Assembly (NCBI GenBank): GCA_040509335.1
Contig: JBEVLE010000636.1
Coordinates: 3,164 to 67,163, forward strand
Length of the DNA stretch: 64,000 nt
Direction: 5' to 3'
Origin: Longimicrobiaceae bacterium
GTDB lineage: Bacteria > Gemmatimonadota > Gemmatimonadetes > Longimicrobiales > Longimicrobiaceae
A program made the translations under genes and the position numbers. Within the stretch, counting starts at the first letter, position 1; every line of letters starts with the position of its first letter. Shown piece after piece: positions 29,001-64,000 of this stretch. The notes beneath the pieces were generated by a model. That model was not told where the DNA came from, searched no databases, and saw nothing but the letters and a program-made list of their open reading frames with translations.

Positions 29001-32000
29001 GGAGGCGCCGGAGGTGCGGGAGGCGGCCGTCGTCGTGCGGGAGGACGTGCCGGGGCGGGCGCGGCTGGTGGCCTACGTCGTCGCCGCGGAGGAGGCGGAG
29101 CCCGCGGCCGGGGAGCTGCGGGCGCGGCTCCTGGCACGGCTGCCGGAGCACATGGTGCCGGGCGCCTTCGTCGTGCTGGAGCGGCTGCCGCTCACGGTCG
29201 CGGGCAAGGTGGACCGGCGGGCGCTCCCCGCGCCGGAGCCGGCCGCGGGCGCGGAGCACGCCGCGCCGCGAACGGCGACCGAGGAGGTGCTGGCGGGGAT
29301 CTGGGCGGAGGTGCTGGGCGTGGAGCGCGTGGGGGTGGAGGCCGGCTTCTTCGAGCTGGGGGGGCACTCGCTGCTGGCCGCGCAGGTGGTCTCGCGGATC
29401 CGGCAGCTGTTCGGCGTGGAGGTGCCGCTGCGGACGCTGTTCGAGGCGCCCACGGTGGCCGCCCTCGCCGGGCGCATCGACGCCCTGCGGAGCGAGGGCG
29501 GCGCGGCCGCCCCGCCCGTCGCGCCGGTCCCGCGCGGGGGGCCGCTGCCGCTGTCGTTCGCGCAGCAGCGGCTGTGGTTCATCCAGCGGCTGGACCCGGC
29601 GAGCGGCGCCTACAACATGCCCTTCGCGCTGCGCCTGCGCGGCGCGCTGGACGCCGCGGCGCTGCGGGCGAGCATCGGCGAGCTGGCCCGGCGGCACGAG
29701 GTGCTGCGCACGGTCTTCGAGGAGCGCGGCGGCGCGCCCGTGCAGGTGGTGCGCCCGCCGGCGGCCGGCGCGCTCCCCGCGCTGGACCTGGGCGGTCTGC
29801 CGGCGGCGCGCCGCGACGCCGAGGCGAAGCGGCTGGCCGGCGCGGAGGCGCTGCGCCCCTTCGATCTGGCGCGCGGGCCGCTGCTGCGGAGCACGCTGCT
29901 CCGGCTGGACGCGGACGACCACGTGCTCCTCTTCACCCTGCACCACGTGGCCGGCGACGGGTGGAGCATGGACGTGCTGGTACGCGAGGTTTCCGCGCTG
30001 TACGGCGCCTTCAGCCGGGGCGGATCGTCGCCGCTGCCGGAGCTGCCGGTGCAGTACGCGGACTTCGCCGTGTGGCAGCGCGGGTGGCTCCGCGGCGCGG
30101 CGCTGGAGGCGCAGGTGGTCTTCTGGAAGGACAAGCTGGCCGGCGCCCCGCCGCTCCTGGAGGTCCCGGTCGACCACCCGCGCAGGGTGGGGCAGAGCGC
30201 GCGGGCGGGGTTCCACGCGTTCACGCTGCCGCCGGACACGGCGCGGGGGCTGCGGGCGCTGTCGCGCCGCGAGGGGGCGACGCTGTTCATGACCGTCCTC
30301 GCCGGCTGGCAGGCGCTGCTGGGCCGCTGGGCCGCGCAGGACGACGTGGTGGTGGGCACCCCCGTCGCGGGGCGCACCCGGCGCGAGCTGGAGGGGCTGA
30401 TCGGCTTCTTCGTCAACATGCTCGTGCTGCGCGCCGACCTGGGCGGCGATCCCACCTGGGGGGGATTGCTGGGGCGGGTGCGGGAAACGGCGCTGGGCGC
30501 GTACTCGCACCAGGACGTCCCCTTCGAGCGGCTGGTGGAGGAGCTGGCCGTGGAGCGCAGCCTGACGCACACGCCGCTGTTCCAGGCGGCGTTCGCGCTG
30601 AGCCACGCGGACCGGGGCGGCGCGCCCGCTCCGCTGGGCTCGCTGGAGCTGGAGCCGGTCCGGGGCGGGGAGGGCGTCGCCAAGTTCGACCTGGACCTGT
30701 CGGTGTCGGACGACGACGCGGCGCTGCACGGCACGCTGACGTACCGCGCGGCGCTCTTCGAGGCGGCGACCGTCGCGCGCATGGCGGGGCACCTGGAAGT
30801 GCTCCTGGAAGCCATGGCGGCCGGCCCCGCGCGGCGCCTTTCCGAGCTTTCGCTGCTGCGCGGCGCCGAGCGTGCCCAGGTGCTGGAGGCCTGGAACGCC
30901 ACCGCCGCCGATTTCCCCCGCGGCCGCTGCGTCCACGAATTGTTCGCCGAGCAGGCGGCGCGCACCCCCGGCGCGGTGGCCGTCGCCGCCGGCGGCGGCG
31001 TGCTGACCTACGCCGAGCTGGAGCGCCGCTCCGGCCGGGTGGCGCTGCGCCTGGCCGGGCTCGGCGTGGGCCCGGAGGCCCGCGTGGGATTGTGCGTGGA
31101 GCGCGGCGCGGAGATGGTCGTCGCCCTGCTCGGCATCCTCCGGGCCGGCGGCGCCTACCTGCCGCTGGATCCCACGCACCCGCCCGAGCGCCTGGCCTAC
31201 ATGCTGGACGACTCGGGCGCGTCCGTGCTGCTCACGCAGTCGAGCCTGGCCGGCCGGTTCCAGGGCTTCGCGGGCGAGATCGTCGCGCTGGACGGGACCC
31301 CCCTCCCCCCGGCCCCCTCCCCCGCAAGGGGGGAGGGGGGGAACGACGAAGCGGTGGACGCGGAGAACGCCGCGTACGTCATCTACACTTCCGGCTCCAC
31401 CGGGCGGCCCAAGGGCGTGGCCGTCCCCCACCGGGCCGTGGTGAACTTCCTGGAGTCCATGCGCGCGGCGCCGGGGCTCGCCGCCGGGGACACGCTGCTG
31501 GCGGTGACGACGCTCGCCTTCGACATCGCCGCCCTGGAGCTGCTGCTGCCGCTGACCACGGGGGCGCGGGTCGCGATCGCGAGCCGGGCGACCGCCTCCG
31601 ACGGGACGCGGCTGGGGGCGGAGATCGCGGCGAGCGGGGCCACGGTCGTGCAGGCCACCCCCGCCACGTGGCGGATGCTGCTGGAGGCCGGGTGGGAGGG
31701 AAGCCCCGGGCTGAAGGTGCTGTGCGGCGGCGAGGCGCTGCCGCGGGAACTGGCGGACCGGCTCGCGGCGCGCTGCGGCGAGCTGTGGAACCTGTACGGG
31801 CCCACCGAAACGACCATCTGGTCCACGATCCGGCGCGTGGAGCCCGGGGAGGGCGCGGTGCCCATCGGGACGCCCATCGCCAACACCCGCGCGTACCTGC
31901 TGGACGGCGGACTGGAGCCGGTGCCGGCGGGGCTGGCCGGCGAGCTGTACCTGGGCGGCGAGGGGGTTGCGCGCGGCTACCTGGGGCGCGCCGGGCTGAC

Positions 32001-63000: not shown

Positions 63001-64000
63001 AGGAGCTGATCGGCTTCTTCGTCAACACGCTGGTGCTGCGGGCGGACGTGTCGGGGAACCCCTCGTTCGACGGCCTGCTGGCGCGCGTGCGCGAGGGCAC
63101 GCTGGGGGCGTACCAGCACCAGGACGTGCCCTTCGAGCGGCTGGTGGAAGCGCTGGGCGTGGAGCGCAGCCCCGGCCGCACGCCGCTCTTCCAGGTGATG
63201 TTCTCGGTGGACGACGGGGCGGGGGCGCCGCGCGCCTTCGGCGGGGTGGAGGCGGAGTACCGCCCCACGGGGCCGGCGGCCGCGAAGTTCGACCTGGCCG
63301 TGTCCGTGGCGGAGTCCGCCGCGGGGCTGGCGGTGCGCTTCGGCTTCCGCGAGGAGCTGTGGGAGGCCGCCACCGTGGCGCGCGCGGCCGAAGCCTTCGC
63401 CGCGCTGCTGGAAGGCGCCGCGGCGGACCCGTCGCGCCCGGTGCTGGAGCTCCCCCTCCTGGGCGAGCCGGAGCGCGAGCGGGTGCTGCGGGAGTGGAGC
63501 GGGCGGTACGCCGCAGGCCCCGCCGCGTTCGTCCCCGTGCACGAGCGGGTGGCCGCGCGTGCGGCGGAGGCCCCGGACGCCGTCGCCGTCGAGTGCGGCT
63601 CCGCGCGGCTGACCCGCGGCGACCTGGACGCGCGCTCCGCCGGCCTGGCCGCCCGGCTCCGCGCGCGGGGCGTGGGCCCGGAAGCGCGCGTGGCGGTGCT
63701 CGCCGGGCGCTCGCCGCGGGGGATCGTCGCGATGCTGGCCGTGCTGCGCGCGGGCGGCGCCTACCTGCCCATCGACCCCGCCACGCCGGCCGAGCGCGTC
63801 CGGGTGATCCTCGCCGACGCGGGCGTGCGCCTGGTGCTCGCCGACGCGCCCCAGGCGCAGCGGCTGGAGGACTTCGAGGTCGAGGTCGTCGTGCTCGACA
63901 CCTCCCCCGCGGAGCACGACAGCTCCGAGGGCAAGAGCGCAGTTGCAGGCTGTCCCCTGTCCCCTGTCCCCTGTTCCCTCTCTTCCGCCTACGTCGTCTA
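46266..64000 (+). CDS. NRPS (3' partial, runs off the window): A-T loading module-(C-A[N-MT]-T)-(C-A-T)x3-C-A(partial)
   Basis: Not in the supplied ORF track. Read directly from the nucleotides, ATG 46266 gives [35 protein letters not shown], which is an A-domain N-terminus. In-frame stops lie upstream at 46194, 46215 and 46221. The A3 motifs (Ala codon before the conserved Tyr) at 46740, 49950, 54360, 57561, 60798 and 63987 all sit in this one frame (position divisible by 3). No + strand ORF fragment in this frame is listed after 46266, which fits a single open frame with no stop before 64000. Confidence 0.88.
48117..52480 (+). other. CDS4 module 2: C-A(interrupted by N-MT)-T
   Basis: C: [13 protein letters not shown] from 48117; HHVVSDG 48513-48533. 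A: [16 protein letters not shown] from 49947; [12 protein letters not shown]: FFALGGHS, Ser codon 52338-52340. Confidence 0.83.
50860..52040 (+). other. SAM-dependent N-methyltransferase domain embedded in the A domain of CDS4 module 2
   Basis: [25 protein letters not shown] at 51075-51101. [12 protein letters not shown] matches the N-MT motif. It is followed by [30 protein letters not shown]. Boundaries are approximate. Confidence 0.75.
52493..52522 (+). repeat. 15-nt perfect tandem duplication in a T-C linker
   Basis: CCCGCTCCCGCGCGA occurs twice (52493-52507 and 52508-52522), followed by a partial third unit. It is translated as [19 protein letters not shown]. Confidence 0.85.
52536..55700 (+). 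other. CDS4 module 3: C-A-T
   Basis: C: [13 protein letters not shown] from 52536; HHVVYDG 52932-52952. A: [16 protein letters not shown] from 54357; [11 protein letters not shown]; [13 protein letters not shown]: FFALGGHS, Ser codon 55557-55559. Confidence 0.83.
54303..54350 (+). repeat. In-frame 7-nt repeat element, copy 2 (A domain of CDS4 module 3)
   Basis: GCAGTTGCAGG, then CTGTTCC CTGTTCC CTATTCC CTGTTCC (54314-54341), then CTATCTCCC. It is translated as [16 protein letters not shown], ending 3 codons before the A3 motif. Confidence 0.9.
55737..58890 (+). other. CDS4 module 4: C-A(atypical family, paralogue of the CDS2 module 2 A domain)-T
   Basis: C: [13 protein letters not shown] from 55737; HHVVSDG 56133-56153. 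A: [16 protein letters not shown] from 57558; FDAHVRQLF 57708-57734; [14 protein letters not shown]: FFELGGHS, Ser codon 58746-58748. Confidence 0.83.
60666..60723 (+). repeat. In-frame palindromic C-rich/G-rich element, copy 2 (A domain of CDS4 module 5)
   Basis: About 58 nt aligned by eye with copy 1, with 3 mismatches, all near the 3' end. Arms at 60688-60698 and 60704-60714, loop GCAAG at 60699-60703. It is translated in the same frame as copy 1: [20 protein letters not shown]. Confidence 0.9.
60741..60780 (+). repeat. In-frame 8-nt tandem array, (GCACTTTC/GCACTCTC) x about 4.75
   Basis: GCACTTTC GCACTCTC GCACTTTC GCACTTTC GCACTC GC. It is translated as [13 protein letters not shown]. 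It sits 17 nt downstream of the palindromic element and immediately upstream of the A3 motif at 60795. Confidence 0.9.
62154..64000 (+). other. CDS4 module 6 (partial): C plus the N-terminal part of the A domain, cut by the window end
   Basis: C: [13 protein letters not shown] from 62154; HHVVADG 62550-62570. The A domain starts at about 63520 ([18 protein letters not shown]; [12 protein letters not shown]). Its A3 motif begins at 63987 (AYVV) and is truncated at 64000. Confidence 0.8.
63939..63986 (+). repeat. In-frame 7-nt repeat element, copy 3 (A domain of CDS4 module 6)
   Basis: GCAGTTGCAGG, then CTGTCCC CTGTCCC CTGTCCC CTGTTCC (63950-63977), then CTCTCTTCC. It is translated as [16 protein letters not shown] and abuts AYVV at 63987. 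Confidence 0.9.

Follow-up and report, generated by a model that had tools for sequence, protein, structure and literature searches.

Probable selfish repeats carried and exchanged in one loop of nonribosomal peptide synthetase adenylation domains in Gemmatimonadota

What are the short repeated segments that lie inside the adenylation (A) domains encoded by a nonribosomal peptide synthetase (NRPS) cluster in a Longimicrobiaceae bacterium of the phylum Gemmatimonadota? We analyzed a 64-kb window of this genome (64,000 nucleotides; contig JBEVLE010000636.1 of assembly GCA_040509335.1), which has a G+C content of 77% and is filled by four plus-strand NRPS genes (g1–g4; Table 1). Three repeat families—a hairpin, a tandem heptamer array, and a tandem octamer array—are read in frame within the loop that separates core motifs A2 and A3 (the a2-a3 loop) in several of its A domains. 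The segments belong to genome-wide repeat families, lie in one and the same loop, recur in NRPS genes of other Gemmatimonadota, turn over between orthologues, and are more conserved than the coding sequence around them. They are probably passenger copies of selfish repeats that resemble repetitive extragenic palindromic (REP) sequences and bacterial interspersed mosaic elements (BIMEs), kept and exchanged within a tolerant loop.

Motif scans located 18 A domains in the window, counted by their A2 motifs. We name each domain by the position of its A3 motif and use L### for loci in other genomes or metagenomes and P#### for homologous proteins. The 18th domain, with A2 at 21429, carries HTSGSTG as its A3 motif. 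An initial annotation, made from the letters of the window, had reported repeats at five sites, all between A2 and A3, in 5 of the 18 domains. Each of these repeats is present, all copies are located in that interval, and their number lies far above chance, with 0 to 0.01 matches in shuffled sequence. The 25-nt hairpin core CCCCTCCCCCGCAAGGGGGGAGGGG occurs twice in the window, against none expected from the shuffles, and the heptamer element pattern GC(A/T)GTTGCAGGC(TGTYCCC)4 has three matches, against 0.01 expected. The hairpin family is ~56 nt long and GC-rich, with a GCAA loop and a conserved tail, GAGMACGAC (3' tail form GGGGGAGMACGAC). Its first copy lies in the domain at 31384 (g3, frame 1) and has a 43-mer core identical to NRPS and intergenic copies of other Gemmatimonadota; the second lies in the domain at 60810 (g4, frame 3), in a loop that it shares with the octamer element, a member of the family (GCACTYYC)n. 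The heptamer family has the leader GCAGTTGCAGGC, and its copies read as AVAGC(S/P)L(F/S)P(V/I)PCSLS; in copy C, three of the four units are TGTCCCC, the form that dominates intergenic arrays.

Eroded copies accompany the intact ones. The remnant GGTGAGCACGAC matches the conserved 3' tail of full hairpins and is also present in the orthologous locus L240, and the remnant ACCTCCCCCGCGGAGCACGAC corresponds to the left-arm end and tail of a full hairpin, with internal deletions. An octamer relic at 49915 has the same position and flanks as the array at 60739–60788, from which it differs by 24 nt, that is, by three units, in frame. The other 13 A domains had been described as ordinary at this position; none has a full element, but this description fails for the relic at 49915–49940 and possibly for the segment at 57477–57554, so that 11 to 13 of the 18 domains are without any element, depending on how relics are counted. 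As the initial annotation had said, copies of one family share a reading frame, each is translated in the frame of its host, and the cores have no stop in any plus-strand frame. They have almost none in the minus-strand frames either. The frame and orientation of the copies are therefore not due to stop avoidance, because the cores are nearly stop-free in all frames. A protein word search with the 41-aa element-encoded peptide returned no candidate.

What do the elements do to the loop that holds them? In three element-bearing loops the A2-to-A3 distance is 79, 79, and 81 aa, and the one truncated at the end of the window seems comparable. The distance is 73–77 aa in other domains of the window and has a sharp mode at 76 aa in 330 homologous loops; the domain at 60810, with 96 aa, is the sole clearly longer one among the five. 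Because four of the five loops are near normal length, the elements mostly replace loop sequence rather than simply adding to it. The earlier description of the elements as inserted at the same structural spot thus needs two amendments: all of them do lie in the same loop, but mostly by substitution (79–81 vs. 76 aa), with clear lengthening at 60810 only, and the hairpins and arrays occupy different nucleotide positions within it. Hairpins begin directly after the strand that ends in (L/C)D, and arrays stop at, or a few codons before, the AYV of A3.

An AlphaFold2 model of the domain at 60810, built from a 71-sequence alignment (mean predicted local distance difference test [pLDDT] score 89.9, predicted template modeling score 0.88), renders the element-encoded residues 138–181 as coil with pLDDT of about 47–55, between confidently predicted strands at 134–137 and 182–188. 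This agrees with the earlier proposal that the inserts sit on a tolerant loop. Alignment to LgrA structures leaves gaps at the element loop. Pfam searches found no extra domain: the domain at 60810 matched AMP-binding and AMP-binding_C alone, and P0032, which has a 134-aa loop, showed the usual C, A, and T domains and nothing else. The a2-a3 site naturally hosts methyltransferase domains of ~260–270 aa (PMC8341866). The predicted structure fits a loop that would tolerate extra or replaced peptide.

Repeats of other kinds occupy the same region elsewhere. In organisms of lower G+C content (56–59%), A2-A3 regions contain different in-frame repeats (L245, about 900–1100, P0002; L246, about 5950–6050, P0010); among these A domains, one has an imperfect palindrome of ~190 nt and one has tandem heptamers, GTAAAAC and GCAATAC. 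The loop of the Longimicrobium protein P0042 contains tandem repeats of ~11 aa. The A2-A3 region may be a general sink for short repeats beyond Gemmatimonadota.

Are the three families confined to NRPS genes? The initial annotation had proposed searching for copies elsewhere, genic or intergenic; they are abundant in relatives and metagenomes and almost always intergenic. Verbatim copies of the 23-nt hairpin core exist in more than 119 loci of species-representative genomes. Five of the listed loci are from Gemmatimonadota, and these have the full ~56-nt form seen in the window. In L098, L104, and L116, the hairpin closely follows stop codons and stands in tandem with variant hairpins and with H3, a further double-hairpin unit of Gemmatimonadota (CCCTCCCCC). 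No coding frame runs through any of the 16 testable Gemmatimonadota hairpin copies outside NRPS genes. The heptamer element was found in at least 120 metagenome loci, nearly all on contigs of 66–78% G+C, and a test combining open frames with G+C at third codon positions placed 1 of 95 testable copies in a coding frame. This sole genic copy lies in a glycosyltransferase-like open reading frame (ORF), in the opposite orientation (L142, about 8280–8330). The metagenomic heptamer arrays have 2–12 units and adjoin gene starts and ends—one, in L104, stands directly before a start codon—and they are often preceded by an inverted hairpin element, a terminator-like stem, or an inverted array. Octamer arrays occur right after the NRPS stop codon in L062 (6625–6653), and in L161 and L180 they occupy gaps without genes. 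Joined units, either hairpin with array or hairpin with H3, form mosaics both between genes and inside loops.

The wider repertoire includes forms not seen in the window. Besides H3, which is translated in A-domain loops as EALPQNWGRVA(A/S)L..PGGG, there is another unit, GCGTGAGGGATGCGCGCCCGGAGGGCCGGGAAC; sites of these further families include L098 (about 230–300), L104 (about 780–850 and 3050–3130), and L116, as well as positions downstream of arrays in L198, L219, and L226. Many intergenic heptamer arrays are perfect long palindromes of the form (ACAGGGG)n–short loop–(CCCCTGT)n, in which an arm can have as many as about 12 units (L125, L126, L181, L193, L233, L238, and others). The leader followed by a TGTTCCC array also occurs on two contigs of 40% G+C (L128, about 1794–1840, and L209). 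A hairpin core, CCCTCCCCCGCAAGGGGGGAGGG, together with an upstream box, ACCCCCC(T/A)CCCC, is found verbatim in many phyla (L001–L119; e.g., L025 2743–2842, L064 3008–3103, and L030 7851–7906), among them Bradyrhizobium and other Hyphomicrobiales, Planctomycetota, Chloroflexi, Nitrospirae, and one metagenome-assembled genome (MAG) of Bacteroidota. This cross-phylum hairpin often forms inverted pairs 50–140 nt apart with complementary G-boxes, similar to REPINs, with neither an Rfam family nor a GTAG/CGTC tag. A BLAST search of such a pair against annotated plasmids gave short unannotated matches (Deinococcus, Azospirillum, Chelatococcus, and others) and no family name. An in-frame pair lies in a UvrA-like ORF of an Undibacter MAG (L029, about 1450–1560), matching published REP insertions in uvrA, and a single hairpin is in frame in a Planctomycetota ORF (L089, about 1414). 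The identity of 35–40 nt of hairpin sequence across phyla raises the question of what maintains it.

How widespread is the loop habit among other Gemmatimonadota? We found a2-a3 elements in NRPS genes of L011, L062, L240, L241, L242, L243, and L244. In L011 and L062, both from MAG270, a hairpin, a spacer, and an octamer array follow one another in a2-a3 loops in the same frame as in the window, although this NRPS shares only about 70–74% identity with any module of the window. L241 combines a hairpin, a variant hairpin, and H3 in a 134-aa loop, and L243 combines a variant hairpin and H3. L242 has elements in three A domains, one of which, at 7239, has an octamer array alone. L244, a 25-kb locus of a Gemmatimonadales genome of 8.4 Mb, has elements or a remnant in each of its six A domains; in two of these, a hairpin is combined with a heptamer array and read as ...PSPARGEGE(N/K)D...AVAG(C/G).... 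The recurring plan of these loops is strand, hairpin or remnant, spacer, then a heptamer array, an octamer array, or H3, and finally A3. Among homologous loops, 5 of 49 from proteins labeled as Gemmatimonadota contained elements, compared with 0 of 281 from others. The NRPS contigs of MAG270 were considered as orthologues of the window and ruled out, with only 68–75% identity to every module; orthologous loci were identified from protein hits instead.

The genic copies are uniform in several respects. Of the 13 NRPS hairpin copies, 12 are in sense orientation, essentially in one frame. The exception is the inverted partner of a pair in L011 (1780–1930), where one A-domain loop contains, all in frame, a hairpin in forward orientation, the heptamer leader GTTGCAGG, and a hairpin in inverted orientation, the only antisense NRPS copy seen. 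Each of the five genic heptamer arrays is made of exactly four units and shares the tail CT(C/T)TCTCTCGC, and the genic octamer arrays, in the window as well as in L011, L062, and L240, comprise about 4.8 units. One A domain of L244 (14919–15034) shifts frame inside the C/G runs of its hairpin and its gene is called as two ORFs; the shift is either an error in sequencing the homopolymer or a true frameshift, whether inactivating or phase-variable. Two MAG contigs end inside elements (L011 at 5163, L242 at 15227), and the N terminus of P0090 starts just after A3. The frequency of elements in A domains is probably underestimated, because the repeats fragment assemblies of NRPS clusters.

Could there be nothing special here, merely ordinary inherited loop sequence or an artifact of assembling a metagenome bin rich in repeats? 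Variability of the a2-a3 loop is common to all NRPSs, and the contigs of L011 and L242 do break inside repeats. Against this, identical elements occupy this site in five or more independent assemblies (JBFMFL01, DASZCX01, DATHBU01, OY970303, and that of the window), the reading frame and A2/A3 spacing are kept, a chimeric join would need an element in both partners, intergenic copies are numerous, and orthologues differ exactly at the element. We consider this explanation hardly credible.

Do orthologous loops keep the same element? Locus L240 (GCA_035942735.1) aligns to the window at 36.7–37.95 kb with about 90% identity on both sides. The alignment breaks after ...CTGGACGG(T/G)GAGCACGA and resumes at CTCGCCTACGTC; between these points the window has a heptamer element and L240 an octamer element. 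L242 and L244 share synteny over MutS, a small ORF, a histidine kinase, and two NRPS genes. The first A domain of the second NRPS carries a full hairpin in L242 and a sequence shorter by 30 nt in L244, which retains both hairpin ends, with flanks 83–95% identical, whereas in the first NRPS an octamer array in L242 corresponds to a hairpin in L244. The window itself offers a similar pair: the domain at 60810 is 75–77% identical to the one at 49962, its closest paralogue, and the two differ by the hairpin and three octamer units (24 nt). The clean-edged presence/absence polymorphism between orthologues that the initial annotation had suggested looking for is thus seen, in the form of replacement and of presence/remnant differences with sharp edges.

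Flank identity matrices show that the element-bearing A domains are not each other's nearest paralogues: the two hairpin hosts of the window are 64% identical upstream and 59% downstream, which equals the background. The 11 NRPS hairpin cores compared have a mean pairwise identity of 93%, with six or seven of them identical, as against an average of 62% for the 150 nt of coding sequence upstream. Longer stretches behave alike. The L240 loop and the loop at 60810 are about 89% identical over their shared part (tail, spacer, and octamer array) with flanks at 54–60%, and the loop with heptamer copy A (37648) is 84–87% identical to two L244 loops with flanks about 55% identical. Downstream-flank identities from the core/flank and cassette comparisons were set aside because loop lengths are unequal and the alignment is global. 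Simple vertical inheritance with one domain lineage, already thought insufficient in the initial annotation, is ruled out by the flank matrices and by the contrast between cores (about 93%) and flanks (about 62%). That the cores are more conserved than their flanks implies continuing homogenization or selection on the nucleic acid. In the first case, the route could be gene conversion or reinsertion, both from the genomic pool and between A domains. Hairpin stems are invariant, and the base between the two C-boxes changes the encoded residue (A, T, or P); variation follows DNA structure, not peptide. In the same vein, three units of heptamer copy C have switched in concert to the form that is usual between genes.

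Selection on the nucleic acid could mean a role at the RNA level, with the sense hairpin acting as a barrier to 3'-5' decay or as a ribosome pause in a very long mRNA, and the a2-a3 loop as the only place where such signals could be written into coding sequence. The hairpin is predicted to be very stable (about −39 to −40 kcal/mol with flanks), its stems are invariant while amino acids vary, and the sense orientation of 12 of 13 NRPS copies gives a GCAA (GNRA) tetraloop. Intergenic copies, too, often lie just downstream of stop codons in sense orientation, and elements recur across many A domains of one cluster. REPs take the same downstream-of-gene position and have been proposed to act on RNA (PMC3733652). 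However, hairpin folding hardly beats composition-matched shuffles (z = −0.95 and −2.07), and the arrays (z = −0.64 and +0.18) are nearly or wholly unstructured except for one local stem. Orthologues exchange a hairpin for an unstructured array, or delete it, without other change; most A domains of the window (11–13 of 18) do without any element; and the site lies inside the N-terminal subdomain, not at a domain boundary where a folding pause would be expected. Rfam covariance models gave no match at the gathering score in the window and 12 loci, and at a relaxed threshold one intergenic mosaic gave chance-level matches only. We regard an RNA-level role as unlikely.

The similarity of loop cassettes in otherwise unrelated A domains bears on another proposal, in which the elements are selected as portable homology patches for in-frame recombination of A domains, allowing specificity swaps and module gain or loss. 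Same-frame direct repeats are available for this in the window (hairpins at 31294 and 60669; heptamers at 37648, 54303, and 63939), and transfer of cassettes between unrelated A domains has evidently taken place. In nature, the units exchanged between A domains often begin near A3, as with A3–A9 in mcyB/C, and conserved core motifs have been discussed as recombination hotspots (PMC8097286), both of which fit. Yet we saw no chimeric A domain with its breakpoint at an element, and the two flanks show no clear switch of nearest relative. The recently duplicated modules (15041/44077 and 7469/40927) are without elements, a homology of 40–55 nt is short, and the benefit would arise at the level of the lineage, where it is hard to select. 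Selection for recombination is, in our view, quite unlikely. The initial annotation had offered recombination landmarks and paced translation as alternatives to selfish repeats; both stay possible, if unlikely.

How, then, might passenger repeats have come to occupy the loop? As we picture it, a limited number of entries by transposition or conversion would have been followed by inheritance and by exchange between A domains as short loop cassettes, presumably through short-tract gene conversion or recombination. Conversion tracts would be anchored on the right by the nearly invariant DNA of the A3 motif and on the left by the preceding strand or by the element itself. Anchoring of this kind would explain the confinement to the loop and the constant frame and orientation, as well as the four-unit heptamer arrays with a common tail and the swaps of array family between orthologues. 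The large genomic pool would refresh the loop copies and hold them near the family consensus. Arrays would be resized only in steps that keep the frame, while hairpins would be eroded by in-frame internal deletions that leave footprints such as GEHD. The encoded peptides would be passengers, presumably neutral for the enzyme. That frame, orientation, and unit number hardly vary among the genic copies suggests a small number of entries and later exchange between A domains rather than repeated independent insertion.

Several observations weigh against this account. The intergenic copies come from relatives and metagenomes rather than from the source genome of the window. Random insertion and a tolerance filter do not by themselves account for one orientation and essentially one frame in 12 of 13 hairpins when no frame has stops, for the fixed unit number and tail of all five genic heptamer arrays, or for the lack of copies seen in other variable NRPS linkers; these features could also reflect selection on peptide or RNA, and the high conservation of the elements could come from purifying selection for function. 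No common target sequence precedes the hairpin copies. Finally, no target-site duplication, terminal inverted repeats, or transposase was found, so that mobility itself stays putative.

Table 1. NRPS genes and repeat elements of the window
Feature	Position	Strand	Sequence or description
g1	137–16450	+	NRPS gene
g2	about 15.7–23.05 kb	+	NRPS gene
g3	23086–46173	+	NRPS gene
g4	ATG at 46266, runs past window end	+	NRPS gene
Hairpin element, copy 1	31294–31349	+	GGGACCCCCCTCCCCCCGGCCCCCTCCCCCGCAAGGGGGGAGGGGGGGAACGACGA
Hairpin tail remnant	37618–37629	+	GGTGAGCACGAC, read GEHD, directly after strand VVLLD; A3 at 37708
Heptamer element, copy A	37648–37698	+	GCTGTTGCAGGC(TGTTCCC)4 TCTCTCTCGCC; abuts AYV of A3
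Octamer relic, short and degenerate, two units	49915–49940	+	GCGCACTCCCGCGCTCGCCGTCCCCC; a2-a3 loop, A3 at 49962
Heptamer element, copy B	54303–54350	+	GCAGTTGCAGGC, four TGTTCCC units (one is TATTCCC), TATCTCCC; then DNL-AYV of A3
Possible decayed element	57477–57554	+	starts GACGGGACCCC like hairpin, ends GCCGTCCCCCGAC; A2-A3 80 aa; resemblance only
Hairpin element, copy 2	60669–60724	+	a2-a3 loop, A3 at 60810
Octamer element	60739–60788	+	GC(GCACTYTC) x 4.8, then GCACTCGCCGTCCCCC; array proper 60740–60777
Hairpin remnant	63900–63920	+	ACCTCCCCCGCGGAGCACGAC, read TSPAEHD; last A domain, cut by window end
Heptamer element, copy C	63939–63989	+	GCAGTTGCAGGC(TGTCCCC)3 TGTTCCC TCTCTTCCGCC; abuts AYV of A3

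The closest protein matches of the window are partial NRPSs from Longimicrobium and Longimicrobiaceae MAGs. Two A-domain regions of g1 have counterparts of high identity in g3—7.2–8.5 kb and 40.7–41.9 kb (84–85%) and 14.6–16.0 kb and 43.7–45.1 kb (95–98%)—which indicates recent duplication or conversion of the terminal modules; none of these domains has an element.

Might the arrays instead be contingency loci, in which slippage of units or of C/G runs shifts the frame and switches the megasynthetase off and on? Neither unit length, 7 or 8, is divisible by three, runs of 5–7 C or G occur in the hairpin, and the L244 A domain is frameshifted exactly inside its hairpin. But the genic arrays are constant in unit number (four in five of five heptamer arrays, about 4.8 in the octamer arrays), four-unit arrays slip rarely, and the sole length difference seen (49915 vs. 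60739) is 24 nt and keeps the frame. The L244 frameshift is itself ambiguous if that genome (isolate MFD01275) is, as we assume, a long-read metagenome assembly, in which homopolymer errors are expected. Frame switching is a very unlikely explanation. It is likewise improbable that the repeats are kept as a built-in NRPS variation system that joins homology patches to on/off switching by slippage; if true, this would amount to natural, repeat-guided diversification or phase variation of nonribosomal peptides.

If the elements are passengers, as we favor, selfish DNA inside coding genes extends from the Rickettsia palindromic elements (RPEs) and from REPs scattered within genes to a phylum that is free-living and very rich in GC. 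New here are the phylum, the involvement of tandem 7-mer and 8-mer arrays and of entire mosaics, the accumulation in one loop of one domain type across many paralogues and genomes, and the turnover between orthologues; so marked a concentration in one loop of one enzyme domain, with turnover continuing between close relatives, is unusual. Literature word searches on repeats in A domains or on Gemmatimonadota repeats returned nothing specific, which is weak evidence of novelty. For NRPS engineering, the stretch just upstream of A3 is a naturally proven site at which 15–60 residues can be replaced or added and at which short cassettes have been exchanged between unrelated A domains. For genomics, the elements break MAG assemblies, split gene calls inside A domains, and can mislead predictors of domain boundaries and specificity. 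They also belong to an undescribed repertoire of mosaic repeats in Gemmatimonadota, one hairpin core of which is found verbatim across several phyla.

How do these elements compare with known repeat systems? Intragenic REPs of the GTAG and CGTC superfamilies have been described, for example in uvrA (Di Nocera et al. 2013, PMC3733652), as have REPINs (Bertels and Rainey 2011, PMC3116915). The hairpins share with them short GC-rich stem-loops that lie mostly downstream of genes, are often dimeric or clustered, and occasionally fall in ORFs, the pair in the UvrA-like ORF of L029 being a case in point. They are, like REPs, imperfect palindromes of 20–40 nt, abundant and mostly extragenic. Outside Gemmatimonadota, the frequent inverted pairs with 50–140 nt spacing recall REPINs; such pairs are common in loci of Alphaproteobacteria and Planctomycetota and one lies in the L011 loop, whereas most Gemmatimonadota copies are single or in tandem mosaics. 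No GTAG/CGTC tag stands beside the stem: 141 copies have the box ACCCCCC(T/A)CCCC upstream and variable sequence downstream. Gemmatimonadota hairpins do have ...GAGMACGACG, which reads CGTC on the opposite strand, though at a distance of 5 nt from the stem. The published definition of CGTC REPs includes a stem of 8–9 bp, A/T at the first two positions, and a CCA tail (PMC3733652). With a stem of about 11 bp made of C/G runs and no tag beside it, the hairpin is excluded from both superfamilies.

Miniature inverted-repeat transposable elements are also rejected, on terminal inverted repeats and target-site duplications: no duplication flanks the element at the polymorphic sites (L240, L242/L244), and the shorter allele, with both ends retained, looks like an internal deletion. 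The BIMEs of enterobacteria are extragenic mosaics of hairpin units and other short motifs in recurring orders. The intergenic mosaics described here likewise join hairpin units with short motifs; in contrast to BIMEs, whole mosaics (hairpin plus H3, hairpin plus array) are also translated inside a protein loop. Cyanobacterial short tandemly repeated repetitive (STRR) sequences consist of tandem heptamers such as CCCCAGT in intergenic arrays of unknown function. The heptamer unit here, CCCCTGT / TTCCCTG, is similar in style, and the arrays of L128 and L209 resemble the STRR type; we know of no report of STRRs in NRPS loops. Contingency loci give phase variation by slippage of simple-sequence tracts. 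The elements resemble them in having units that are not multiples of three and homopolymer runs inside an ORF, but differ in their constant unit number in the genic copies compared and in showing no frame-shifting variant apart from the ambiguous homopolymer frameshift of L244.

Interrupted A domains have foreign sequence at the same a2-a3 site, accepted while the A domain stays active (PMC8341866). Theirs, however, is a catalytic methyltransferase of 260–270 aa, compared with 15–60 aa of low-complexity, repeat-encoded peptide here, and we reject an interrupted A domain in the catalytic sense on the absence of any Pfam domain in the inserts. The initial annotation had likened the segments to RPEs, and this analogy holds as a description of how the elements work. 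RPEs (Ogata et al. 2000, 2002) are, by the account in PMC10969869, short palindromic repeats found between genes and in frame inside genes. The likeness lies in repeat families that are both intergenic and, in frame, inside functional genes, with the added peptide where the fold tolerates it and the element conserved as DNA, not as protein. On functional grounds, rather than by homology, the elements fall in an RPE-like class: they have many copies, keep the frame, and are polymorphic between orthologues. We claim no membership by homology and expect no sequence similarity to RPEs; length, base composition, and host phylum all differ. RPEs are AT-rich, ~100–150 bp long, and scattered over many unrelated genes, with about half of the copies genic in some families, as against only about 1–2% outside NRPS genes here. 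The elements described here are hairpins of 40–56 nt and tandem 7-mer and 8-mer arrays in a genome of 77% GC, and, unlike RPEs, their genic copies are concentrated in one loop of one domain type and exchanged between paralogous domains.

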